A stretch of 24,434 nucleotides of DNA, taken from a phage. Location of the stretch: assembly GCA_021031555.1 (NCBI GenBank), contig GCA_021031555.1_4954.1. One strand, written 5' to 3'. Position numbers and translations under genes: made by a program. The notes under the pieces were generated by a model, which saw only the letters and a list, made by a program, of their open reading frames with translations, was not told the DNA's origin and made no database searches. Position 1 is the first letter of the stretch, and every line of letters begins with the position of its first letter. Positions 539-21,789 of the stretch are shown here, in pieces.

Positions 539-945
539 TTAACGTAAAAGTTAATAAGGTTGACAACTCACTACGTATGGTATTCGGTTGGGGTAGTATC
601 TGTAAAAAACGTAATCAGGAGACAGGCCAGTTAGAAATTTACACAGACACGGACAACGAGCAATTTCCCGAGGATGTCACTCTGAAAGCATGGCTGGACT
701 TTATGAATTCTGACCAGCGCATCATGGACAATATGCACAATGAACAACCTGTTGGGAAAGTTGTGTTTGCGTTCCCGATGACTGAAGACATTGCGGCAAG
801 TTTTGGGCTGGTTGATAAACTGGATCAGACAGGCGTCATTGTTGGTACGTTGATAACTGATGACGAAGTTTTGAAAAAGTTTCAGACTGGTGAATATACT
901 GGATACAGCATCGGTGGAACTGCATATTATGAGGATGTGGAATAA
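535..945 (+). CDS. hypothetical protein, probably head morphogenesis
   Basis: 136-aa ORF; GAGGA 9 nt upstream of GTG 535; translationally coupled to flanking genes (GTGA and TAATG overlaps); sits in the head gene block. Confidence 0.6.
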   Translation: MINVKVNKVDNSLRMVFGWGSICKKRNQETGQLEIYTDTDNEQFPEDVTLKAWLDFMNSDQRIMDNMHNEQPVGKVVFAFPMTEDIAASFGLVDKLDQTGVIVGTLITDDEVLKKFQTGEYTGYSIGGTAYYEDVE

Positions 946-2204
946 TGCGTACAGATGGTACTAATCATTTACGCCGCGCTAAATCGATGAAGATCGGTTT
1001 TCTGTCCGGCGTGACAAAACCTGCTCACGAGGGAGCAAACGCTCTTGTTCTTAAATCACATTCAGAACCGCCTGCTGTTGTTCTTTTAAAGTCAACATTC
1101 AGTGCAGCACTGGCTGAAAAAGAACTTGAACAGAAAGTTCGTGATTTCCTCTCTAATTCGTGGATGTTGAACGATGCGCTTTATGAAGCAGCAGAGGATA
1201 TTGCAAAAGATGATTCTGTTACCGATAAACAAGCAGCATTGCGTGACGCGGTAAATGAATATATTATAACGTTGCAACAGGCCGCTGGTATTTCGATGAA
1301 TAAAGCGAAAGGTGGTAAAACTGAAGACGGTGAAGTTTTCCCGGCATCTGATTATGCATATGTACCAGATCCAGAAAAACCTTCAACCTGGAAACTTCGT
1401 TTAACAGCTACCCCTGGCGGTGAACCTGATGCGCGTATTGTAGGCGCTGCACTTGCTGCATTAGGTCCGGGTTATCGCGGTAACAAAGTTGAAATCCCTG
1501 AAGCCGATTTAGCAGGTGTTAAAAACAAAGTCCGATCCGCGTGGAAAAAATTACACCCGGACCAGGAAGTACCTCAAGTTTTAAAAACGGCAGAGGAAAT
1601 CGAAATGTCCGAACTGGAAAAATACAAAGCCCTGGCTGAGATGAACGACGTCCATAAGGCGTATCATAATTCTCTGCCTGAATCTGATCAGGAAGCATTC
1701 CGTAAAATGGATGCGACTGCTCGCGATGCTCTCGTGACGATGGCTAAACAGGCTGATGAATCGTTTACCACGATTGCTGGTCAGGTTGTTCAGAAATCTG
1801 TAGCTGGTCCGATGTATGACGTTCTGAAATCTCAGGACGAACAACTTCGCAAAGCACAGACTGAAGCGGCACTGGCGAAAGCTAAAGAAACCGTGAACAC
1901 TGATTTCGCACATATTCCGGGTGAAATGGTACAGAAAACCCAGATGGTCATGACTCTTGAGCGTTTACCGGAAGCGGATCGTAACTTCCTGGTTGAAAAA
2001 CTCAAACAGGCCGACGAACTCTGGAAAGCACGTAAAGAGCCAGCCGCGCCGAACGGCAGTGGTAAAGGTTCCAGTGCACTGGAAGACATGATCGACGAAT
2101 GGCTGAAAGCAAATCCGGGTAAAACACGTACCCAGGCTATGCAGGCCATTTCTGCAACTAAAAAAGGTCAGGAAGCAATCGAAGCGATGCGAGGTGACGA
2201 ATAA
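945..2204 (+). CDS. putative scaffolding protein (possibly protease-scaffold fusion)
   Basis: 419-aa Ala/Glu/Lys-rich, predicted helical protein immediately upstream of decoration-like and major capsid genes; TAATG overlap at both ends. Function inferred from position and composition only. Confidence 0.55.
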   Translation: MRTDGTNHLRRAKSMKIGFLSGVTKPAHEGANALVLKSHSEPPAVVLLKSTFSAALAEKELEQKVRDFLSNSWMLNDALYEAAEDIAKDDSVTDKQAALRDAVNEYIITLQQAAGISMNKAKGGKTEDGEVFPASDYAYVPDPEKPSTWKLRLTATPGGEPDARIVGAALAALGPGYRGNKVEIPEADLAGVKNKVRSAWKKLHPDQEVPQVLKTAEEIEMSELEKYKALAEMNDVHKAYHNSLPESDQEAFRKMDATARDALVTMAKQADESFTTIAGQVVQKSVAGPMYDVLKSQDEQLRKAQTEAALAKAKETVNTDFAHIPGEMVQKTQMVMTLERLPEADRNFLVEKLKQADELWKARKEPAAPNGSGKGSSALEDMIDEWLKANPGKTRTQAMQAISATKKGQEAIEAMRGDE

Positions 2205-3699: not shown

Positions 3700-4053
3700 A
3701 TGCGTAATTCATATGATCCGTCACTGAAATATGTTTTCACCCGTCCGATGCTGTGGAACGGTAAACAGATGTCCGCTGGCGATAAAGTATCAACATCAAA
3801 AGCTACCCCGGCTGTTTTAAATGCCCTTGTGCGTATGCGCCACATTGAACCAGCTACTGCGACCGTTGAAGAACCAGTGATTATAGCAAACGAAGAATCG
3901 GCATCAACCACTGCGGCTGAAATCCGACGTGACGCGCCAAAAACCTATAACGTTTATGTTATGGGTATGCCGATGAATTCAGAATCGTTTAGTAGTAAAA
4001 GTGCCGCTGCTGAATGGTGTGAATCTCAAGGCTTGACATATAACTATTCTTGA
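3700..4053 (+). CDS. hypothetical protein
   Basis: ATG 3700 with GAGG 9 nt upstream. The ORF-track start at 3646 would read through the terminator hairpin, so it is rejected. 117 aa. Confidence 0.6.
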   Translation: MRNSYDPSLKYVFTRPMLWNGKQMSAGDKVSTSKATPAVLNALVRMRHIEPATATVEEPVIIANEESASTTAAEIRRDAPKTYNVYVMGMPMNSESFSSKSAAAEWCESQGLTYNYS

Positions 4054-4061
4054 CCTATTGT
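4033..4061 (+). promoter_or_regulatory. candidate sigma70-type promoter
   Basis: -35 TTGACA (4033-4038), 17-bp spacer, -10 TATTGT (4056-4061). Lies at the 3' end of the preceding CDS and points into the non-coding region. Confidence 0.35.
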
Positions 4062-4256
4062 TAGTTGTAGATAGTTTTCGTGGCGACTTTGCGGACTTTT
4101 TAGAAACTGACCACAAAGATAAATGCAAACGAAGAACGTTTTCTGATGGCGGCGTAATAGCCTGTAAGTCAGCAAGGTCTTCCGATTCCTTGTAAATAAA
4201 TTCGGCGCACTGGCCCGGTGTGATTAATAATGGGCACACAACAGGTAAGAGCATTG

Positions 4257-4302
4257 CGCGCCTGACGAGTCCATGAGGGACGAAACGCATTAGCGTCGCG
4301 CG
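4257..4302 (+). ncRNA. type I hammerhead self-cleaving ribozyme motif
   Basis: Read directly from sequence. Stem I 4257-4261 (CGCGC) pairs with 4298-4302 (GCGCG). Core CUGACGA at 4262-4268. Stem II GUCC/GGAC (4269-4272 / 4278-4281), loop AUGAG. GAA at 4282-4284. Stem III ACGC/GCGU (4285-4288 / 4293-4296), loop AUUA. C17 at 4297, giving a GUC cleavage triplet with the predicted cut between 4297 and 4298. Confidence 0.7.
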
Positions 4303-4509
4303 GAGTATCCCCAGCCGGGGAATAACTGGATACCAGGGGAGTCAACCCTAAGCGCATTTACGAGTGTGTTTAGGGCGTGGGTCGGCAATGACTCCCTGTG
4401 CAGCCGACATCTGGCCCGGCAACATACAGTGCTCTTATCGTTGTGGTGAATTGCAGTTCTCAGAAACAACCAGAAGATAAGCGCCTGGCACTGCAACCAA
4501 ACACTCGCT

Positions 4510-4530
4510 GATAAGGAGGTGATCCTTATC
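4510..4530 (+). promoter_or_regulatory. hairpin carrying a 13-nt perfect anti-16S (extended Shine-Dalgarno) sequence
   Basis: TAAGGAGGTGATC (4512-4524) is the exact reverse complement of the 16S rRNA 3' end. It sits in an 8-bp inverted repeat GATAAGGA / TCCTTATC with loop GGTGA. A TTG at 4531 opens a 17-codon ORF. Confidence 0.4.
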
Positions 4531-4698
4531 TTGCTGGCGGGAAAGCCGCAAATCGTGGGTAAAGCATGTTGTGAAACATCCTGAACTGCGTGTCGTTTTA
4601 CATAACTGGTTATTCACGTGTCACGCATAGGGGTATGTTGGGACGTCAGGTGTGGATGACCAGTTATGTAAAACCCTCATTATCACCCAGAGCCATTT

Positions 4699-6439: not shown

Positions 6440-7897
6440 ATGGCTGAATCAATTTTTAAATGTTCGCAAACACCTGCGGCTGATGTAAACGCAACACGAC
6501 TCAGTGTTGCAAAAGTCTGTGAACCTGTTTCTGGTACACCCTGGACGGTTCAACAACCGAATGAAATCAGTTCTTACAGTGCTGATATTACAAAGACTCA
6601 GCGTACACCGATCAGTACGGACCGATCTGCACGTAAAGGCACGGTAACTAACGTTGAAGTTGCGCCGGGTTTTCAGACAGACCTGACACTTGATACGTTC
6701 CGCTACTGGGGTGACGGATTCCTTTATAGTAAATGGGTCGGTGCTGGTGCAATTGATATTGACGTTACCAGTGTTGGCGGTGACGCTTATAACGTTACTA
6801 CTCTTGATGCGGCATTACCTGAAGGTGCTCTTGTTTATGCGACAGGTTTTACACTGGCTGCAAACAACGGTTTGAAAACTGTAGGCGCTGATAGTACCAC
6901 TACTGCTATCAAAGTGTCAGGGCTTACTGCCGAAGCGTCACCGCCTGCTGAAGCTCGTTTGTATCTCGTGGGGTATGCTGCAGCGTCTGGTGACATCGCT
7001 GTTAACAGTAATGGTCAGTTGACGTCTACCACCCTGGATTTTTCCACACTGGGTTTAGTACCTGGTCAGTATATTTATATTGACGGTCTAACACAGTCGG
7101 TTACCAGTAAAATGGCCCGTGTGACTATGGTTGGTGATCATGTTCTGACTCTCGCTAACAGTGAATTCACCACTGAAGAAGGTGCGGGTAAAACTGTACG
7201 TTTATTTGTTTCCAGTTTTGTTCGAAACGTTCCTGTTGATTCTGCAGAGTTCGTGAAAACTGAATACACGATGGAAGCACGTTACAACACGACACCTGTT
7301 ATTTATGAATACGCGCGTGCTGTAGCTGCAAACCAGATGACAATCAACGCACCATTGACTGAAAAAATGACAATGGATCTGACGTTTGTAGCACAGGATT
7401 TATCAGCACCGTCAGAAACCGCGCTATCGGGTTCCGGGTATATTGAATTCGTGGCTAACGAAGCGTACAACACCGTAACGAACCTGAACCGTGTACGACT
7501 GACCGGGATTGATGATAGTGGCCTCAGTACGTTCCTGAAAGACGTTACTGTCACCGTGAATAACAACGTGTCAGGTGAAAACGTGCTGGGCGTGATGGGT
7601 GCTGCGTTTACCAACATCGGTAACCTGGAAATCACGATGGAAACTGAAACGGTGATGACGGACGGTGCTGTACTGGCTGCGATCCGTAACAACGCAACAG
7701 TCAACTTTGAACTTGCCGGGGTAAACGGTGATGGTGCAATCGTGGTTAACATCCCTGCGATGACACTGGGTGACGGTTCCAAGAACCTTGCGACGGGCGA
7801 AAAAGTGAAAGTCACTGTTAGCGGTAACGCCCACGAAGAAGAGTCGATCGGTTTTATGATTGGGTTTAGCTTGTTCCCGTACTTGCCTACAGCATGA
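6440..7897 (+). CDS. putative major tail (tube) protein, unusually long
   Basis: 485-aa Thr/Val/Gly-rich protein; ACGAGG RBS; located where the tube gene is expected; followed by a strong terminator. Confidence 0.6.
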   Translation: MAESIFKCSQTPAADVNATRLSVAKVCEPVSGTPWTVQQPNEISSYSADITKTQRTPISTDRSARKGTVTNVEVAPGFQTDLTLDTFRYWGDGFLYSKWVGAGAIDIDVTSVGGDAYNVTTLDAALPEGALVYATGFTLAANNGLKTVGADSTTTAIKVSGLTAEASPPAEARLYLVGYAAASGDIAVNSNGQLTSTTLDFSTLGLVPGQYIYIDGLTQSVTSKMARVTMVGDHVLTLANSEFTTEEGAGKTVRLFVSSFVRNVPVDSAEFVKTEYTMEARYNTTPVIYEYARAVAANQMTINAPLTEKMTMDLTFVAQDLSAPSETALSGSGYIEFVANEAYNTVTNLNRVRLTGIDDSGLSTFLKDVTVTVNNNVSGENVLGVMGAAFTNIGNLEITMETETVMTDGAVLAAIRNNATVNFELAGVNGDGAIVVNIPAMTLGDGSKNLATGEKVKVTVSGNAHEEESIGFMIGFSLFPYLPTA

Positions 7898-7917
7898 CAT
7901 GGTGGATGGTAGTGATT

Positions 7918-7944
7918 GCCCCGGAACTGCCCGGGGCTTTTTTT
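7918..7944 (+). terminator. rho-independent terminator after the major tail gene
   Basis: Stem GCCCCGG / CCGGGGC (7 bp), loop AACTGC, followed by TTTTTTT. Confidence 0.75.
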
Positions 7945-8155
7945 ACACGTATTGAATCTGTTTTGGTGAAAAAGGTTTGTCGTATTTTCCATTACCTTTT
8001 AACCATTCAATCAATTGTTCACGTAAACTTTTACGGAATTCAGATCGTAAATTACTGTTGAGAAGTTTAAAGAACACAGGGAACATGTCCGGGTGGTATG
8101 CACGGAAAAGTTTTTCAACTTGTTCACGATTAACGTTATATTCCCGAACTATCAA
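7943..8155 (-). CDS. hypothetical small protein (questionable)
   Basis: 70-aa ORF on the - strand; TTG start with no clear RBS; downstream of the 125-aa moron gene. Confidence 0.3.
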   Translation of the reverse strand: MIVREYNVNREQVEKLFRAYHPDMFPVFFKLLNSNLRSEFRKSLREQLIEWLKGNGKYDKPFSPKQIQYV

Positions 8156-8187
8156 TCTAAACTGTGCATTTAGTTTGCGCTGTTGGT

Positions 8188-8565
8188 TTACTTTTTTATT
8201 TTACAGTAACGTTGCCGTTTTTCCTCTTGCTCTTGTTCATAAACTTTATATGCCTCTAAAACTTCAGGTGTCGCATCTGGTCGGGATCCGTAACATGGGT
8301 AACACCAACCACGAGTAGTTGCAAAGGTGTACCATGATGCTGATTTTGTTTCCGGGTGCCATATCAACATTTCAAAATCAGAATCGTGATAACCATTGCG
8401 TTCACGTTCTTTGATACAGCAACCATGATCAGTTTCATAAAGAAAATAAGACGGCGGGTAATCTCCACCTATGTCATTCCGGTGAATAGGGCTGTAAGCA
8501 CCCTCAAGTAATTTAATATTTCCTTCAAAAACAGAACTATGCCAACCCATGTTAATAATTGCCAT
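8188..8565 (-). CDS. hypothetical Cys/Trp/Tyr-rich protein (moron inside tail module)
   Basis: 125 aa; ATG 8565 with GAGGA 8 nt upstream; own promoter candidate; opposite orientation to the surrounding structural genes; contains HGCC and WCYPCYG motifs. Confidence 0.65.
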   Translation of the reverse strand: MAIINMGWHSSVFEGNIKLLEGAYSPIHRNDIGGDYPPSYFLYETDHGCCIKERERNGYHDSDFEMLIWHPETKSASWYTFATTRGWCYPCYGSRPDATPEVLEAYKVYEQEQEEKRQRYCKIKK

Positions 8566-8597
8566 CGCTCTAATCCTCAGTTCGTTTCGTTGAGTTA

Positions 8598-8626
8598 AAG
8601 ATACCTTACCGTTTGTAGTTCGTCAA
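8598..8626 (-). promoter_or_regulatory. candidate sigma70 promoter for the - strand moron cassette
   Basis: On the - strand: -35 TTGACG (8626-8621), 17-bp spacer, -10 TATCTT (8603-8598). Confidence 0.35.
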
Positions 8627-8643
8627 GAATTATTTTAAATCTC

Positions 8644-8672
8644 TTGCGTAATTTGTACAGAACTATTACTAT
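8644..8672 (+). promoter_or_regulatory. candidate promoter for the chaperone / tape measure genes
   Basis: -35 TTGCGT (8644-8649), 17-bp spacer, -10 TACTAT (8667-8672). Weak match. Confidence 0.25.
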
Positions 8673-8703
8673 CTAATCGTCTACTACATAAAAGGTAAAA
8701 ACC

Positions 8704-9126: not shown

Positions 9127-9422
9127 TTGACTTCCTCTTGTGGAACGATAAGACAGACGGTGATGACCTGGACTGGGTTACACAAGGGGCGGCTGCACGT
9201 GGTATATCTGTTCCGGTTGTTGTACAGAAACGTCCTGAATTGCGACCTGATGCTATATTTTTTTGGAATGCTTATTTGGACCTGATGGAAGCCGATTGGG
9301 TTGCTTGTGAGCGTTATGCACGGGTGTATAACGTTGATGTACAATTCTTGTGGAAATTATTGATAGCATTGCGGTCTGCACGTGTTGCCGAGATGAAAAA
9401 AAATAAACATAAGCCCGGTTAG
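8704..9422 (+). CDS. tail assembly chaperone frameshift fusion product (G-T-like)
   Basis: A -1 shift at 9117-9123 continues as KKLIDFLLWNDKTDGDD... to the stop at 9420-9422. This is the conserved siphovirus arrangement upstream of the tape measure gene. Confidence 0.6.
9117..9123 (+). promoter_or_regulatory. -1 programmed frameshift slippery site A_AAA_AAC
   Basis: The heptamer sits in the zero frame two codons before the stop. The -1 frame is open from here to 9422. Confidence 0.6.
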
Positions 9423-9435
9423 TTCCGGGCTTTTT
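9413..9435 (+). terminator. possible intrinsic terminator or attenuator between chaperone and tape measure genes
   Basis: Stem GCCCGG / CCGGGC (6 bp), loop TTAGTT (contains the stop codon), followed by TTTTT. Confidence 0.5.
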
Positions 9436-9514
9436 CATATATTATAGTTAATTATTTGTCGCTTTTTACACCCGTGTTAAACTGTGCATATGCTTCACGA
9501 AAAGGTTAACCAAC

Positions 9515-12500
9515 ATGGCACAATATCCTATTGATATTAAGTTTGATACAGGTAATGCAGATCGAAATCTTAACAATCTTAGTGACAGATTAGATCAGAC
9601 CGCGAAGGCGACGATAGCCGCGGCAACAGCTGCGAATAATTTATCAGATGCTGAACAAGCTGTTACCCAGGCCACTATACGTTTAGTACAACAACAAGCA
9701 AATAAAGCAGCAAGTGCTGCTGCTGATGCTCGTGCTACCAGAGAACAAGCACAGGAACAACTACGGTTATTAACTTCTCAAAATAAAATCAACGATAACC
9801 AAAAAAAAGCTATTGAATTAGCGCAAATTGTTGAACGTTCTTTACAGGATGAAAAGAAAGCTCTTGAAGACCTATCTTCATCTCAAAGTAGACTTAGTCA
9901 GTTACAGGAACCGTTCATACAACAAGAGATTGCAAAAAAAACAGCACAAGCACAAGCAGCAGAATCTGCAAAACGTGAGGCTGCTGCTCAACGTGAGGCT
10001 GCGAAAGCAGCGGCTGAAAAAGCAGCATCTGAACAAAAACAAAGACAAGCGTTAGATAATGCTAAAAAATCCAACGATGATTTCATAACATCATTACGAC
10101 AACAAATAGCAGTCTTAAAAACTACGGGTGTCGAGAGTGTAAAACTTCAGAATTCTTTTAAGTTGAATGCGCAAGCTACAGCAGAACAAAGAAAAGAAGT
10201 TGAAAAACTTTCACAAGAATTATACCAGTTACAGCAACCAGCAAAGAAAACATCAGGTACATTAGAAACACTTGTCACTGGTGCAAAAGCGTTTGTTGGT
10301 TTACAGATTGCAGGGTCACTTTACGACTGGGGTAAAGCGTTTGTAGATACTGCAACGAAAGTTGAACTGCTACAGAGTCGCATTAATCTGTACACATCAA
10401 CGTCGGTTGAATCACAACAGATTTTTGCGCAATTAGTACAACAGGCTAACCGTGCTGGTACAGATATTGACGCTGTGGCAAACAGTTTTCAGCGTTTTGC
10501 CGCTGCTGGTAAAGATGCCGGGATTAGTAATCAGGTTATTTTACAGTTTACCGACAACCTGCAAAAAATGGCCCGTGTATCTGGCGCATCCAGTGCTGAA
10601 GCATCTGCGGCTATTTATCAATTATCACAGGCGTTTGCATCTGGTCGTTTGCAGGGGGATGAATTCCGATCTGTGTCAGAACAGTTACCAACTGTTCTTC
10701 AGGTGCTGGCTAAACAGATGGGGGTGACCACGGGGGAACTTAAACAGTTAGGTTCTGATGGTGAAATCACTCGTGATAAACTATTGCTATTAAACAACGC
10801 GACTGATGAAATCAGCGCACAGTTCGATAAACTTCCTCGTTCTGTAGATCAGTCTGCTACTGCGTTACGTAACAACCTGTCCGTGGCTATCGCTGAACTC
10901 GATCAGCAGATTGGCGCATCTAAATTCCTGGCTAAATTCCTGGACCTGTTAGCAGGTGGTGTATCGGGTACAACAGAGTTAATAAAAGCCGCTGCAGGTG
11001 CTGACAAACTGGCACAAGCCACTAACAATCTGAACAGTGTTACCGCAAAACGCGAAGCCAATCTGAAAGAAATTGCAGATCTGGAAGCACAAATTCAGCG
11101 TGGGTATACAACACAGTCAATTGGTGGGTATACAAAATTTGTTGGTGATACAAGCGCTGCACAGAAGAAATTAAACGAACTTAAAAAACTTGATGTTCAG
11201 TTAACAAAACAACAAGCAGAAGCACAACGAGGGGTTGTTCAGGCTACTCCGTTGGGTAAGGGTGTTGCTGAAAATCTTGCAAATCAGGCAAGCACTTTAC
11301 AGGCGAGTATTACGGCTGCTCAGGCTGCCGGACGTCCTGATGCCGAATCTGCAAAACAGATTAAAAACCTGAAAGAACAGATCACTTACACCCAGGCGCT
11401 TGCTGACGGTAACTATGAACTGGCAGCAAGTCAGAAACTGGGTAATAAAGCAACTAAGGAACAGATTGCAGACTATGCTGCATTGTTGAAACAACAGGCA
11501 GAATATAAAGAAAATCAAAAGAACCAGAAGAAATTAGCCAGTGCTGAAGCATCTGCGGCTAAACGTGCACAGAAAGAACTGGAACGTAATCAGGCTGCTA
11601 ACCAGAAATACCTGAAAACGCTTCAGGATAAAATCAATGCTGGTAATTATGATGTTCAGTTAGCCCGCGAACAGGTTCAGATTGCTTTAACACAGGGGTC
11701 GTCTGTTGAACAACTTACAGCAACGTATCAGAAAGAATATCAGGTACGTCAACAGTTAACGCTGGCATCACAACAGGCAGAAGCACAGTCACGACTGAAT
11801 AAAGACGCGACTGATGCTGAACGTGCCGCTGTTGATGCACATGTGGCTGCATTGCAACGACAACAGCAGGCGCAACAGTTAGCTGGTCAGGTTTCACAGG
11901 TACAAACCGATGTACAGGGTGAGTTAAACCCGTATCAATCACAGGTTGATCAGGTTAATCAGCAGGAAGCACAACGTCTTACTGTCATACAACAAGCCCG
12001 TGAACAAGATTTAATCAACGAGCAACAATATCAGGACATGAAAACGCAGATTCAACAGGCCGGGGAACAAGCCCGTACGAATCTTGCGAATGCTAACTAC
12101 AGTCTGTTGCTACAGTCCAGTGCTGATTTTTTGGGTCAAATGGCTGCTGGTCTGGCACAATCTAAAGGTGAACAATCAAACGCGTATAAAGCGATGTTTG
12201 CACTGTCTAAAGCCTTTAGTATCGCACAGGCGAGTATTAACCTGTGGACAGCCGTTAGTCAGGCTATGGCGTTGCCGTTCCCGGCGAATATTCCGTTCAT
12301 TGCACAGGCTTTATCATACGGGACAAGCGTATTAGGTAACATTCAGTCTGTGGCTGCAACAGGTTTTGCAACGGGTGGTTATGTTAAAGGTCCGGGTACA
12401 GGTCAGAGTGACAGTATAAACGCACGTTTGAGTAATGGTGAATTTGTCAGTACCAAACAGGCTACGAGTCGTTATCGTAGCACTCTGGAAGCAATGAATC

Positions 12501-12724
12501 GTGGGACATACACCCCCGGATCTGAAGGTGGTTCATCACCTAATATTCAGGTTCATAACTACGGTGGTGAACGTGTTCAGGTGAAACAAGGATTAACACG
12601 GGATGATGTAGTGCTTATCATAGGTGAAGAATTCCCACGACAATCAGCGGCACAATGGAATGACCCGTACAGTCAGACAAATAAAGCGTTCAGGTCTAAC
12701 TATGATGCGAACAGGAAAATATAA
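9515..12724 (+). CDS. tape measure protein
   Basis: 1069 aa; long Ala/Gln/Glu/Lys-rich coiled-coil segments; position after the chaperones; TAATG coupling to the next gene. Confidence 0.9.
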   Translation: MAQYPIDIKFDTGNADRNLNNLSDRLDQTAKATIAAATAANNLSDAEQAVTQATIRLVQQQANKAASAAADARATREQAQEQLRLLTSQNKINDNQKKAIELAQIVERSLQDEKKALEDLSSSQSRLSQLQEPFIQQEIAKKTAQAQAAESAKREAAAQREAAKAAAEKAASEQKQRQALDNAKKSNDDFITSLRQQIAVLKTTGVESVKLQNSFKLNAQATAEQRKEVEKLSQELYQLQQPAKKTSGTLETLVTGAKAFVGLQIAGSLYDWGKAFVDTATKVELLQSRINLYTSTSVESQQIFAQLVQQANRAGTDIDAVANSFQRFAAAGKDAGISNQVILQFTDNLQKMARVSGASSAEASAAIYQLSQAFASGRLQGDEFRSVSEQLPTVLQVLAKQMGVTTGELKQLGSDGEITRDKLLLLNNATDEISAQFDKLPRSVDQSATALRNNLSVAIAELDQQIGASKFLAKFLDLLAGGVSGTTELIKAAAGADKLAQATNNLNSVTAKREANLKEIADLEAQIQRGYTTQSIGGYTKFVGDTSAAQKKLNELKKLDVQLTKQQAEAQRGVVQATPLGKGVAENLANQASTLQASITAAQAAGRPDAESAKQIKNLKEQITYTQALADGNYELAASQKLGNKATKEQIADYAALLKQQAEYKENQKNQKKLASAEASAAKRAQKELERNQAANQKYLKTLQDKINAGNYDVQLAREQVQIALTQGSSVEQLTATYQKEYQVRQQLTLASQQAEAQSRLNKDATDAERAAVDAHVAALQRQQQAQQLAGQVSQVQTDVQGELNPYQSQVDQVNQQEAQRLTVIQQAREQDLINEQQYQDMKTQIQQAGEQARTNLANANYSLLLQSSADFLGQMAAGLAQSKGEQSNAYKAMFALSKAFSIAQASINLWTAVSQAMALPFPANIPFIAQALSYGTSVLGNIQSVAATGFATGGYVKGPGTGQSDSINARLSNGEFVSTKQATSRYRSTLEAMNRGTYTPGSEGGSSPNIQVHNYGGERVQVKQGLTRDDVVLIIGEEFPRQSAAQWNDPYSQTNKAFRSNYDANRKI

Positions 12725-16622: not shown

Positions 16623-17027
16623 GCAGTTGGCTTGTTTTTTGTTGCAACATCTGAGCAGTGGAAAGATAAGCAGACAGGAGAAAAGAAAGAGCAGACTGAA
16701 TGGCATCGCGTGGTCATCTTCGGTAAACTTGCTGAAGTTGCAGGAGAATACCTTCGCAAAGGTTCGCAGGTTTATATCGAAGGCCAGCTACGCACTCGTA
16801 AATGGTCTGACAGCAACGGCGTAGACCGATATACCACGGAAATTGTCATTCCACAGATGGGCGGCGTAATGCAGATGCTTGGAAGTAAACGCGAAGATTC
16901 TGGTCAGCAACAACGCCAGCAATCAGGCCAACAACAGCAACGACAGCAACAGCAGCAACAAAAACTACAAAGCCCACAAGGAGGTAATGAGCCAAAGATG
17001 GATTTCGATGACGACATTCCCTTCTGA
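16623..17027 (+). pseudogene. ssb: 5'-truncated ssb (single-stranded DNA-binding protein) remnant
   Basis: The translation closely matches the E. coli SSB sequence as recalled from residue ~55 onward ([35 protein letters not shown]...DRYTTE) and ends in the canonical acidic tip MDFDDDIPF. The N-terminal part of the OB fold is absent. Homology begins 3 codons after the stop of the upstream gene, in the same frame. No RBS. Confidence 0.8.
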
Positions 17028-17031
17028 TGAT

Positions 17032-17059
17032 AAAACCCCGCCGAAGCGGGGTTTTATTT
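17032..17059. terminator. bidirectional intrinsic terminator
   Basis: AAAACCCCGC cgaa GCGGGGTTTT: GC-rich stem flanked by an A-tract and a T-tract, between the convergent ssb remnant and tailspike. Confidence 0.75.
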
Positions 17060-19054
17060 CTAAATAGCTTGCGCGGTAAGGATGATGCCAGATGAGTAAA
17101 GGGTCAGTCCCGTTATTTCACTAGCCAACAGCGCTTTGAACATGTTGCGGTCCTGCCCGAAAACAACGCCAGAGAAGAAAGTCCCAAGATTTCTGTATCC
17201 GCCAGCGGTTGGCATACGGATAAATAGGTAAGACGTACCCTCATACGTGCCGGTAAACCAAGCATCATAATCTGTGAGAGATTGGCTATCGCAGTGAGCA
17301 GCTCTGACTAATTTTGCTCGTGTATCAGTATCACTACCTACGGTATTGAAGTCATATACGCCAGCTATAGGGTTCATGCTTGGCCCACTCCGCAGAGTGA
17401 AAATCGTCCCAAGACAGCCACGCATTCCGTATTGCCCACCAACTATGCGGTAGTAAGGCCCAGCAGACTGGTCCGGGTTGGGTAACACCATATCGCGGCA
17501 CATAGTGGTGCTGAATGTCGGTATTGTCGCCGTTCCACCCATATTACCTAGCGTGGCGAAAGTCGCGGTTGCGGTGTCGTACGAGTTACGTTGAGGCCAC
17601 GACGTTTCAACCTTATTGCTGTACACGATTTCTAACTTAGCACCGTTAGTTAAACGGGCCATCGCTCCATTGAAAGTAGTGGTCGAATTGGTGATTAGTT
17701 GCTTAATGCTTACTTTCGCATAACCGGATAGGTCAAACATGTAGCTACCAGCAGCCTGCGTTTGGTCGTACAGGTGTATATTATCTATCTGTAAGTTAGC
17801 CCCGGTGCCTTTAATAATTGTGCCGTTGTTCTGGCGAGAAGGTTGCTCACAACCTAAAGATGAAACGCTGTACGAGCCTGCGTTAAAAATATACGGAGTC
17901 CCAGCGCAATCATCAGATGCTAACGGACCCACTTCGCAGTATGAGCCTGTCAACTCAAAGGAGCAGTAATTCGATTTATATACATTACATTGAGATAATA
18001 CGTAGCTCGTCCCACCATGTATATGAATACCACCGTATATACCCGTAGCGTCTGAACCTTGGACAACTATTTCGCGGATGGAAACACCAACGAATGTATT
18101 TCCGCCAAAATACATTCCCCATTTTTGCGCAAGGATAAATAGATCACTAAATTCCTGGTATACGGCGGTATTGGGAGTGTAGTACCCGTAGCTATCAGTT
18201 GTCTCGTCAAGGATGCGCAGTCCGCGGATAACATTACCGCGTTTACCTTTGTTATAGAAAACCGCGTTAACATCCTGAGTTCCTACTGCTGTTTTGCGAA
18301 TAATGGATGCACGTCCCTCGCCGACGAATCGGCTTCCCGGTGGCTGATAGTATTTCTCGTTGTAAACATCTTCCAAATCATAGAGAAGAATGGAGTCCGA
18401 TACCTCATATTCGCCAGCGGGCACAAATATAGTTTTTCCCAGTTGCGCGGATATAGTTGACGCGCGATTAAACGCAAGTGTCCAGTCAGGGTCGATGCTC
18501 TGGCGGAAATCAAGAACGGATATCATTTCCGCGTTTTTGTCATGCTGAGTGCGGCTTACCGTGTTGGCATATGGTTGTTTGACTCCAATGAGAGAATCAC
18601 CTTTCCCGCCATCCGTTGAAGCAAGACTGCTGGTTAACTGGTTTACTGCTGCCATTGCAGTGGCGTCACCAACACTAAGCCATGCACCTAAACCAATACC
18701 ACCAGAATTTTCAGGAGTTGAACCTGACGGGATAGTTTTAGGAAACTCGCCGTCCCAGCGATAATACTCACCAGTAGCTTCATGTCGCAAAACCTGATTT
18801 GGCAACGTCAGTGTCGCACCACCCTCAAAGCTATCCATTGTGATGTAACCGACCTGAGATATAGCCTGATTGTACAGGTTTTCTAAACCATCAAGTGTCT
18901 TGTTAGTAACTGATTGACCACGAATCGTATCGGTAACATCCAACGCGTGATTACCGTTTGCATCACGACTTTTTGCAACGTGTTCAATATGTAAAATCGC
19001 TTGTTTGCCTGTTTTCAAATCATCAGCACTGATATAATCGTTACAGTTAGCCAT
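17060..19054 (-). CDS. tailspike / receptor-binding depolymerase (right-handed beta-helix type)
   Basis: 664 aa from ATG 19054 (GGAGA 8 nt upstream). Central region has repetitive Gly/Asn/Thr-rich beta-strand character typical of pectate-lyase-like tailspikes, behind a ~130-aa N-terminal domain. Opposite strand to the tail operon. Confidence 0.75.
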   Translation of the reverse strand: MANCNDYISADDLKTGKQAILHIEHVAKSRDANGNHALDVTDTIRGQSVTNKTLDGLENLYNQAISQVGYITMDSFEGGATLTLPNQVLRHEATGEYYRWDGEFPKTIPSGSTPENSGGIGLGAWLSVGDATAMAAVNQLTSSLASTDGGKGDSLIGVKQPYANTVSRTQHDKNAEMISVLDFRQSIDPDWTLAFNRASTISAQLGKTIFVPAGEYEVSDSILLYDLEDVYNEKYYQPPGSRFVGEGRASIIRKTAVGTQDVNAVFYNKGKRGNVIRGLRILDETTDSYGYYTPNTAVYQEFSDLFILAQKWGMYFGGNTFVGVSIREIVVQGSDATGIYGGIHIHGGTSYVLSQCNVYKSNYCSFELTGSYCEVGPLASDDCAGTPYIFNAGSYSVSSLGCEQPSRQNNGTIIKGTGANLQIDNIHLYDQTQAAGSYMFDLSGYAKVSIKQLITNSTTTFNGAMARLTNGAKLEIVYSNKVETSWPQRNSYDTATATFATLGNMGGTATIPTFSTTMCRDMVLPNPDQSAGPYYRIVGGQYGMRGCLGTIFTLRSGPSMNPIAGVYDFNTVGSDTDTRAKLVRAAHCDSQSLTDYDAWFTGTYEGTSYLFIRMPTAGGYRNLGTFFSGVVFGQDRNMFKALLASEITGLTLYSSGIILTAQAI

Positions 19055-21219: not shown

Positions 21220-21565
21220 GTTCCGGTACGCTCTCCACGCTGTAATACACAGGAATACCCAGACGTTCAGCTTCTGCAATTTCTGCTAGCGTACCAGATG
21301 AACGACGATAATCAGGAAGCACCAGAACAGCGTCACAGCGGCGCATAACTTCTAATGTGCCTGACAGGTAGTATTCAGGTTGTATATTGCGTAAACCGCC
21401 GTCAAAGTCCCACAATTCGGTGTTCTTGTGAGGGATAACCGGGAACCACCCAGGACGTTGTAAAGCAAGTCTTTTACCTGCCTGTTCAGCGCGCGACACG
21501 TTACGGGATGTTTTAAGCGCACAATCAGCACGATAAGGCCCAGCAATGTAACAGAGTTTAATCAT
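21212..21565 (-). CDS. nucleoside 2-deoxyribosyltransferase-like / DUF4406-like protein
   Basis: 117 aa from ATG 21565 (MIKLCYIAGPYR...DAVLVLPDYRRSSGTLAEIAEAERLGIPVYY). Pattern recalled from this small Rossmann-like family; not searched. Confidence 0.45.
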   Translation of the reverse strand: MIKLCYIAGPYRADCALKTSRNVSRAEQAGKRLALQRPGWFPVIPHKNTELWDFDGGLRNIQPEYYLSGTLEVMRRCDAVLVLPDYRRSSGTLAEIAEAERLGIPVYYSVESVPEHG

Positions 21566-21789
21566 GGTTGTTTTCCTGCATCTGTATAATGAGCTATGAT
21601 TTCTTCCAAACAATTTATTGTGAAGAGAAATTTTAAACCAACCCGACATTCCCAAATATGTTCTCTCAAATCTCTTGGGTCGGTGTACCCTCCGACAATA
21701 ATAAAATTTTTAATCTTTTGTTTATATTTATCGGGAACGAAGTTGAAAAAGTCACGTTTAGTCTTAATTTCCAGACTGAATCTACTCAT
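21562..21789 (-). CDS. hypothetical protein
   Basis: 75 aa; translationally coupled to both flanking genes. Confidence 0.5.
   Translation of the reverse strand: MSRFSLEIKTKRDFFNFVPDKYKQKIKNFIIVGGYTDPRDLREHIWECRVGLKFLFTINCLEEIIAHYTDAGKQP

Follow-up and report, generated by a model that had tools for sequence, protein, structure and literature searches.

The closest described counterparts of the locus analyzed here are the morons of lambdoid and HK97-type phages, which consist of promoter, gene and terminator and are found between conserved late genes. A similar arrangement is found in the window, by which we mean the whole stretch of 24,434 nucleotides of phage DNA considered in this work (NCBI GenBank assembly GCA_021031555.1, contig GCA_021031555.1_4954.1). 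Here, a predicted sigma-70-type promoter and a hairpin delimit a putative independent transcription unit that lies between two genes of tail morphogenesis, is carried only by some relatives, and has a G+C content of 0.38-0.42, as compared to 0.43-0.51 in the neighboring tail tube gene. There are three differences from the lambdoid and HK97-type morons. First, the phage that carries the unit belongs to a virulent type, and therefore neither expression from a prophage nor lysogenic conversion is expected. Second, the promoter and the Shine-Dalgarno sequence appear to be fixed in the phage backbone, with only the ORF being exchanged. Third, the copy of the ORF in the window is frameshifted.

The window comes from a siphophage of the 9NA/Sasha type. 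Sashavirus BDX09P1 and the Escherichia coli phage KarinMuster_Bas82 (Bas82) are 96% identical to it over about 80% of its length, and the identity to the Salmonella phage Sasha is 93.5%. Phages of the 9NA type are virulent (PMC4153490), which removes lysogenic conversion from the roles suggested for this locus in the initial annotation, a reading of the DNA made without database searches. Rfam and tRNA scans across the window gave no match.

The explanation that we consider best, with a probability of about 0.7, is that the locus is a moron-like unit in which a promoter "socket" precedes a single gene of the family phrog_30881, that this gene has been cut by a deletion of one nucleotide in a run of A residues, and that the product is now mostly the N-terminal domain. 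There is nothing surprising in kind about such a locus. The positions of its elements and of the adjacent tail genes are listed in Table 1.

Table 1. Elements of the accessory unit and neighboring tail genes, in window coordinates
Feature	Position	Strand	Remarks
Tail tube gene	ends just before the hairpin 7918-7937	+	485 aa
G+C-rich hairpin GCCCCGG-AACTGC-CCGGGGC	7918..7937	.	intrinsic terminator of the + strand tube gene, T-run 7938-7944
3' part of the split gene	7943..8191	-	82 codons and stop, -1 frame relative to the start codon; basic helical C-domain
70-aa ORF (ORF70), TTG start	7943..8155	-	inside the 3' part of the gene, without a Shine-Dalgarno sequence of its own
125-aa ORF (ORF125), ATG start, 5' part of the gene	8188..8565	-	14.8 kDa; N-domain and first 25 residues of the long helix
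A_AAA_AAG heptamer (A6 run and G), zero frame	8191..8197	-	site of the 1-nt deletion, from alignments with intact alleles and translation
Shine-Dalgarno sequence GAGG	8575..8578	-	9 nt from the ATG; conservation with relatives of different cargo extends up to here
Predicted sigma-70-type promoter	8598..8626	-	TTGACG (8626-8621), 17-nt spacer, TATCTT (8603-8598); A/T-rich stretch upstream
Tail assembly chaperone gene	start 8704		flanks the slot on the other side
Frameshift partner ORF of the chaperone	9138-9422

The slot between the tail genes and its signals

The initial annotation regarded the region as a moron cassette with a promoter of its own, transcribed against the tail genes, and recommended that its presence or absence be checked in related phages. 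Among phages of 78-96% backbone identity the occupancy of the slot, located at the same position between the tube and chaperone genes, was found to vary. Sasha, Sergei, Solent, VLCpiS10a and several metagenome contigs carry a gene of 207 aa, Bas82 a gene of 87 aa (phrog_27467), AVIO78A a gene of 55 aa (phrog_20712), and 9NA an unannotated 36-aa ORF with a GTG start, while PJ16 has no cargo at all. Since only some of the relatives possess the gene found in the window, it does not belong to the core genes for structure or assembly, and a structural or assembly role was rejected in view of the close relatives that do without it. The neighboring slot in relatives is occupied by a genuine T5orf172-type endonuclease.

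The promoter proposed in the initial annotation is present where it was placed; taken by itself, however, the match is no better than chance, as a 2-kb region contains four promoter-like sites, compared to 4.7 expected from shuffled sequence. It is the comparison with relatives that speaks for it. Sasha, VLCpiS10a, Bas82, AVIO78A and 9NA all retain both hexamers at a distance of 17 nt, with the bases of the spacer varying at several positions. The ribosome-binding site that had been noted upstream of the ATG is likewise conserved in relatives with unrelated cargo. Within positions 8575-8626, i.e. from the Shine-Dalgarno sequence to the -35 hexamer, 47 of the 52 nucleotides are identical to the window in Bas82, 46 of 52 in AVIO78A and 43 of 52 in 9NA; in the 36 nt that adjoin on the cargo side, the corresponding numbers are only 11, 11 and 18. 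PJ16 lacks both the promoter and the cargo. At the other end, every relative has a hairpin at the corresponding position, and this is where the homology of the cargo ends. Because homology breaks off just after the Shine-Dalgarno sequence and again at the hairpin, we regard the leftward promoter as probably functional, with good comparative support, and the cargo as probably exchangeable. The promoter would be active, probably early in infection, and could be read by the host RNA polymerase.

The hairpin and T-run behind the tube gene bear out the terminator that had been assigned to this tail gene. The same hairpin directly follows the stop codon of the cargo, but its T-run lies only on the + strand side and a transcript of the minus strand would have no U-tract here, which makes termination of the cargo transcript at this site uncertain.

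Taken together, these comparisons support the view of the region as a moron-like accessory unit with exchangeable cargo, transcribed against the tail genes, and in this respect the initial annotation proved sound: the signals upstream of the gene are conserved, a hairpin bounds the unit, and only a part of the relatives carries the gene. We propose that positions 7918-8626 constitute one such unit, in which a host-type promoter encoded by the backbone, a short leader and the GAGG element would be followed by a swappable cargo ORF, and that the cargo would be transcribed leftward, up to the hairpin behind the tube gene. In this understudied group of virulent phages, the locus may serve as an example of an expression socket, where unrelated small ORFs that can be swapped, stacked or deleted are framed by the hairpin of the tube gene and, at the opposite end, by a promoter and Shine-Dalgarno sequence that stay fixed.

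The split gene and the nature of the break

The coordinates, strands and start codons (ATG and TTG) of the two ORFs in the slot are as first reported, but their interpretation as a cassette of two genes did not survive the comparison with known families. In the PHROG profile search, ORF125 matches positions 1-125 of phrog_30881 (E 7.5e-88), and ORF70 matches positions 138-207 of the same family (E 7e-38), whose profile comprises 207 positions and is annotated as function unknown. No single polypeptide in the window gives the full-length match; it is split over two reading frames and becomes whole when one base is restored. Sasha, Sergei, Solent and the Klebsiella phage VLCpiS10a all possess, at the same position, one intact minus-strand gene of 624 bp that encodes 207 aa, and the DNA of the window can be aligned end to end with the genes of Sasha and VLCpiS10a, the sole difference in length being one base missing from an A-run. 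The frame-restored protein is 91.8% identical to that of Sasha, 90.8% to that of VLCpiS10a and 35% to that of BcepSauron.

Translation of the -1 frame from 8197 to 7943 yields KKVNQQRKLNAQFRLIVREY..., which is the sequence of the orthologues. Read from 8197, this frame gives KKVNQQRKLNAQFRLIVREYNVNREQ...KPFSPKQIQYV and then a stop, matching the C-terminal half of the orthologous proteins; the restored frame runs through KKVNQQRKLN..., and the C-domain encoded by the 3' part terminates in PFSPKQIQYV. The TTG of ORF70 corresponds to an internal Leu codon of the full-length gene.

The alternative of two separate small genes, a Cys/Trp/Tyr-rich metal-binding protein of 125 aa and a basic helical protein of 70 aa, agrees with the fact that both ORFs are open in the window. 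It is contradicted by the single family profile, by the single gene in relatives, by the lack of conservation of the cysteines (see below), and by ORF70 itself, which starts with a TTG devoid of a Shine-Dalgarno sequence and was not predicted by the gene caller on the source contig. We consider it so improbable as to be negligible. The description of the 70-aa ORF as a basic, helical region with a poor start was accurate; it is only its status of a separate gene that must be given up, as it represents the C-domain of the split gene. Since both ORFs match phrog_30881, intact orthologues exist, the alignment gap consists of a single base in an A-run and the -1 frame restores the sequence, the 125-aa and 70-aa ORFs are, as judged from these sequence comparisons, the two halves of one accessory gene that has been divided by the deletion of one A. 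The result removes a trap for annotation. A "hypothetical protein" of 125 aa is listed in the NCBI record HBL4964244.1, and a naive reading of the locus sees two genes in what is really one broken gene.

The missing A belongs to the A-run at 8192-8197, where the window reads ...ATA AAA AAG TAA, with the stop codon (8188-8190) directly after the heptamer. The window sequence TGT AAA ATA AAA AAG TAA ACC can be compared to TGC CAA ATC AAA AAA GTA AAC C in VLCpiS10a and to TGC AAA ATA AAA AGA GTA AAC in Sasha. Going upstream from the GTA codon (8191-8189), the -1 frame is closed by a TAA after only four codons, and therefore the A-run is the only place at which the two halves can be joined.

A break within a homopolymer raises the suspicion of a sequencing or assembly error, in which case the real phage would have an intact gene (A7) and the locus would encode the 207-aa protein. 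This suspicion is fed by the perfect maintenance of the downstream frame and by the IMG/VR contig L009, in which the Sasha-type allele of the same gene shows a different change of an A-run (from A5 to A6) that leaves an ORF of 106 aa. However, the split gene is the only broken one among about 27 genes shared with the relatives, all others being full-length and in a single frame according to tblastn comparison with Bas82 and Sasha. Two assemblies of run ERR5751948, the NCBI third-party (TPA) assembly of E. coli to which the window belongs (protein HBL4964244.1) and that of Logan, agree on the 125-aa product. Illumina reads are the basis of the NCBI pathogen TPA assemblies, and A6/A7 consensus errors are rare in such data, which also counts against an error. 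A further piece of evidence comes from the 90%-identity cluster of the protein, in which nearly all of the 38 members have 207 aa, and which includes a second protein of 125 aa, P0191, encoded on two ENA contigs (the longest of 58,099 bp). P0191 has the same sequence as residues 1-125 of the intact protein P0184 (10 contigs) and is cut at the same residue as the window protein, from which it differs at four residues.

We consider an error unlikely. The absence of other broken genes, the agreement of the two assemblies and the second protein cut at the same residue suggest that the break is real, and the restored C-terminal part, in which there is no further stop or shift and only 2 of the 82 residues differ from P0184, suggests that it is recent; that the deletion is both real and recent thus appears quite likely. 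No copy of the window-type allele was found at the DNA level in IMG/VR, JGI metagenomes, complete E. coli genomes or PLSDB. The A-runs of the gene are either mutational hot spots or prone to miscalling in public assemblies.

If the deletion is genuine, the possibility of regulated use of both frames has to be weighed. The heptamer A_AAA_AAG is the same as in dnaX-type sites, where it also lies in the correct frame over tandem Lys codons (PMC1851650, PMC4066793), and it is among the most efficient heptamers in E. coli when stimulators are present (PMC4066793). According to this alternative, a programmed -1 frameshift would allow both the 125-aa and the 207-aa protein to be made, or a heritable A6/A7 switch would toggle between them as in a contingency locus. 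In the window the heptamer (8197-8191) conforms to the pattern X_XXY_YYZ in the correct zero frame and the stop codon comes next, the -1 product is exactly equal to the ancestral protein, P0191 provides a second allele with the same truncation, and family members consisting of the N-domain only do exist. On the other hand, the protein is read from a single frame in Sasha, VLCpiS10a, L007, L025, L028, L029, L035 and almost every member of the cluster, and therefore nothing has evolved around a shift. Known stimulators are a Shine-Dalgarno-like element at a distance of about 10 nt on the upstream side and a stable structure 5-8 nt downstream, and neither was found at the heptamer: GAGG, the closest element of the first kind, lies 25 nt upstream, and the fold of -13.9 kcal/mol predicted downstream is not significant (z -1.72, with 12 of 200 shuffled sequences folding as well). 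In E. coli, heptamers deprived of stimulators reach only 2-10 times the background of about 0.055% (PMC4066793). The window thus differs from dnaX-type sites in lacking both the upstream element at the proper distance and a significant stem-loop, and also in that a shift leads back to the ancestral frame rather than to an alternative C-terminus and is not conserved in relatives. In view of the absent stimulators and the in-frame relatives, evolved programmed frameshifting was rejected, and we regard this alternative as a whole, including the heritable switch, as very improbable.

Returning to the simple deletion, ordinary translation would stop after residue 125 and produce an N-domain-only protein, whereas the full-length protein of 24.8 kDa could come only from ribosomes that slip by -1 on A_AAA_AAG. 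As no stimulator is evident, the full-length product is expected to be a small minority, at most a trace.

The phrog_30881 family

The family to which the split gene belongs is large. An exhaustive profile search at E<=1e-3 identified at least 1,653 representatives of clusters formed at 50% identity, 258 of them at E<=1e-30. Among the best 150 profile matches nearly all are single ORFs of 190-230 aa, and the 41 close and distant homologues retrieved by a word-index search are all full-length proteins of about 200-215 aa free of Pfam domains. Isolated phages with the family include the Sasha group, VLCpiS10a, the Burkholderia jumbo phages BcepSauron and BcepSaruman, and Caulobacter jumbo phages, and in the Streptomyces phage Yara an N-terminal piece is present. 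The six genomic contexts that we examined are phage genomes or phage-like contigs, some of them resembling jumbo phages. Metagenomic members have no constant neighbor and occur in the vicinity of rIIB, ClpP, sigma factors or Pam3-like replication modules. When 185,579 species genomes were searched with two strict motif patterns, only four loci were found, three of them in metagenome-assembled bins. In the sequence collections covered here, the family is thus shown to occur almost only in phage DNA. Its known members, such as Sasha gp43 (YP_009787817), VLCpiS10a S10a_00089 and BcepSauron gp016, are all hypothetical proteins, and a literature search with the accession numbers of family members found no publication.

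The AlphaFold2 model of the full-length protein (mean pLDDT 86.5) contains a five-stranded beta N-domain, a long helix (residues 100-143) and a helical C-domain (residues 147-206). ORF125 modeled by itself is predicted to adopt the same fold (pLDDT 86.2). The N-terminal part has a pI of 5.4 and the C-terminal part one of 10.1. Family members are predicted to be two-domain proteins of about 205 aa, in which an acidic, beta-rich, strongly conserved N-domain is followed by a basic, helical C-domain. The invariant residues of the family are G48, E55, N57, D61-S62-D63, A82, T84, R85, W87, Y89, P90, D97 and A98, and all of them are retained in ORF125.

On the other hand, none of the cysteines is invariant. 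Only C50 is conserved in at least 90% of the members, and the others are mostly replaced by L, S, A or M; most members show WSYPC in place of the string WCYPC, and YPAM or YPSY also occurs. The HGCC and WCYPCYG strings, in which the initial annotation saw a hint of a small metal-binding fold, are indeed present in the translation, but the family does not maintain the three or four Cys/His ligands that such a fold would need, and a cysteine-based metal site was rejected because the cysteines are not conserved.

The two domains do not always occur together. In P0037 and P0039-41 the N-domain is joined to a different C-terminal region, and P0196 and P0202 consist of the N-domain alone, none of the frames downstream encoding a C-domain. 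A profile search with the N-domain alone, made for domain fusions, returned nothing but short N-only proteins. Given that N-domain-only relatives exist, the truncated product of the window may keep the activity of this domain.

Possible roles of the cargo

The statement of the initial annotation that nothing in the sequence assigns a function was upheld by searches with profiles, domain libraries and structures. Neither the two halves nor the restored protein gave an informative match in Pfam, NCBIfam or PADLOC; among 50 + 10 family members scanned against Pfam, a few showed sub-threshold helix-turn-helix matches only. The best hit of a sequence-profile search of the PDB had an E value of 0.4, and Foldseek against BFVD found family members only. 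No match to curated models or solved structures of known defence or anti-defence proteins was obtained.

The circumstances of the gene nevertheless permit a guess. Slots of this kind tend to hold genes for host interaction and anti-defence. Considering that the gene is dispensable, that it is oriented against the tail genes behind a host-type promoter, and that bacterial genomes hardly contain the family, our best guess is that the gene encodes an accessory protein made early and directed at the host, of which only the N-domain is left here, and which would act in takeover, anti-defence or exclusion rather than in the assembly of the virion. The role may thus be one of those put forward earlier, exclusion or anti-defence.

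A different view would be that the cargo is a selfish, free-standing gene similar to those of homing endonucleases, with a catalytic N-terminal domain and a helix-turn-helix in the C-terminal one, which would explain its sporadic distribution between conserved genes. The patchy occurrence in unrelated phages is compatible with this view, and so are the invariant residues E55, D61, D63 and D97, the sub-threshold helix-turn-helix matches in some C-domains (HTH_IclR, 19.7 bits versus a cut-off of 22) and the endonuclease in the adjoining slot of relatives. We consider this reading very improbable.

The host-directed accessory protein that we prefer belongs to a family with neither a Pfam model nor a structural relative, and the family is therefore a reasonable target for functional screening. 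It is tempting to go further and imagine a new class of early effectors with an unseen fold, in which the N-domain would be the active part and a C-terminal tail of the form Q-x-x-Y-[LIV] would tether the protein to a host hub such as the beta sliding clamp; the A7/A6 change together with ribosomal slippage would then act as a leaky heritable switch between a tethered 207-aa and a free 125-aa form. We regard this scenario as highly improbable. The tail in question, P-[LF]-S-x-[KR]-Q-[LMW]-x-[YCF]-[LIV], was identified in 129 of 153 family members, in 99 of them at the very end of the protein. Its second half, Q-[LMW]-x-[YCF]-[LIV], resembles the consensus of motifs that bind the beta sliding clamp, QL[SD]LF or Q-L-x-L-F (PMC12867686, PMC4549789), which are likewise found at C-termini. 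However, the family has Y at position 4 and L/I/V at position 5, where the consensus has L and F, and AlphaFold2 places residues 201-206 in a confident helix and not in a floppy tail. For these reasons the likeness to the clamp-binding motif, seen at the level of sequence, can be taken only as a lead. In the window, the corresponding residues in the restored frame read QIQYV.

Sequences bordering the cargo gene

The 77 nucleotides immediately upstream of the chaperone gene are near-invariant across all the relatives, including PJ16, with 60 to 76 of the 77 positions identical. They enclose a weak promoter-like site on the plus strand, and the segment is a candidate promoter or leader, which may restart transcription of the tail genes past the tube terminator. 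On the other side of the slot, the gene finder called a 55-aa ORF on the source contig, which spans the terminator hairpin and runs antisense to the cargo gene; this call is almost certainly spurious.

Coordinates of the features discussed in this part
Sequence	Position	Strand	Feature
Window	4054-4634		Gap between two head-module genes
Window	7894-8061	plus	55-aa ORF called on the source contig
Window	8627-8703		Conserved segment upstream of the chaperone gene
Window	8644-8672	plus	TTGCGT-17-TACTAT, weak promoter-like site
Window	9423-9514	minus	Second slot, flanked by the chaperone ORFs and by the tape measure gene
Window	9515-12724		Tape measure protein
Window	16632-19054 and 21565-21785		Exchanged modules
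L005 (Salmonella phage 9NA)	2395-2505	minus	Unannotated 36-aa ORF with GTG start
L009 (IMG/VR contig, IMGVR_UViG_3300045988_038444)	4001-4622		Sasha-type cargo-gene allele
L035 (ENA contig, ERZ8811409 NODE_278)	741-2070		Tandem cargo units; for comparison with window 7890-8703 and 9234-9261

Contents of the two slots

The Sasha-type allele on the IMG/VR contig carries a +1 change (A5 to A6), resulting in a 106-aa ORF; this change lies in a different A-run and is independent of the break in the window. In 9NA, the small ORF directly follows the conserved promoter and Shine-Dalgarno sequence, at a position where the annotation of that phage shows the slot as empty.

The ENA contig is from a relative and carries two cargo units in tandem. 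The end of the tube gene and its hairpin are followed by the 87-aa gene (identical to Bas82_0044) and a copy of the promoter and Shine-Dalgarno sequence, then by a 72-nt piece of the 94-aa chaperone-frameshift ORF and a repeat of the 3' end of the tube gene with its hairpin, and finally by the 207-aa gene, another copy of the promoter and Shine-Dalgarno sequence, and the chaperone gene. This arrangement would be either a true recombinant with stacked cassettes or an artefact of chimeric assembly.

The second slot is empty in the window; a gene for a DUF723/T5orf172-type endonuclease and a superinfection-immunity gene (PF14373) occupy it in Bas82, PJ16 and several metagenome contigs.

Variation elsewhere and the source of the contig

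The head-module gap comprises approximately 580 bp without a convincing ORF, compared to 352 bp in Bas82; the Sasha annotation places a terminator in the corresponding gap, and an Rfam scan of the window interval returned no match. The tape measure protein has 1069 aa, whereas that of Sasha has 971 aa and that of Bas82 has 855 aa; its N-terminal part is diverged or expanded, which implies that the tails of the three phages would differ in length.

Compared to Bas82 and Sasha, the window has exchanged modules: the conservation of the tailspike/tail fibre gene is limited to the first ~142 residues, and a small gene adjoining the methyltransferase genes is replaced. The 393-aa DNA methylase of Sasha has no counterpart in the window.

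The phages of the 9NA type are virulent (PMC4153490), yet the window is a contig within the assembly of an E. coli isolate (NCBI TPA protein HBL4964244.1; run ERR5751948), which suggests that the phage was in a carrier state or had contaminated the culture used for sequencing.
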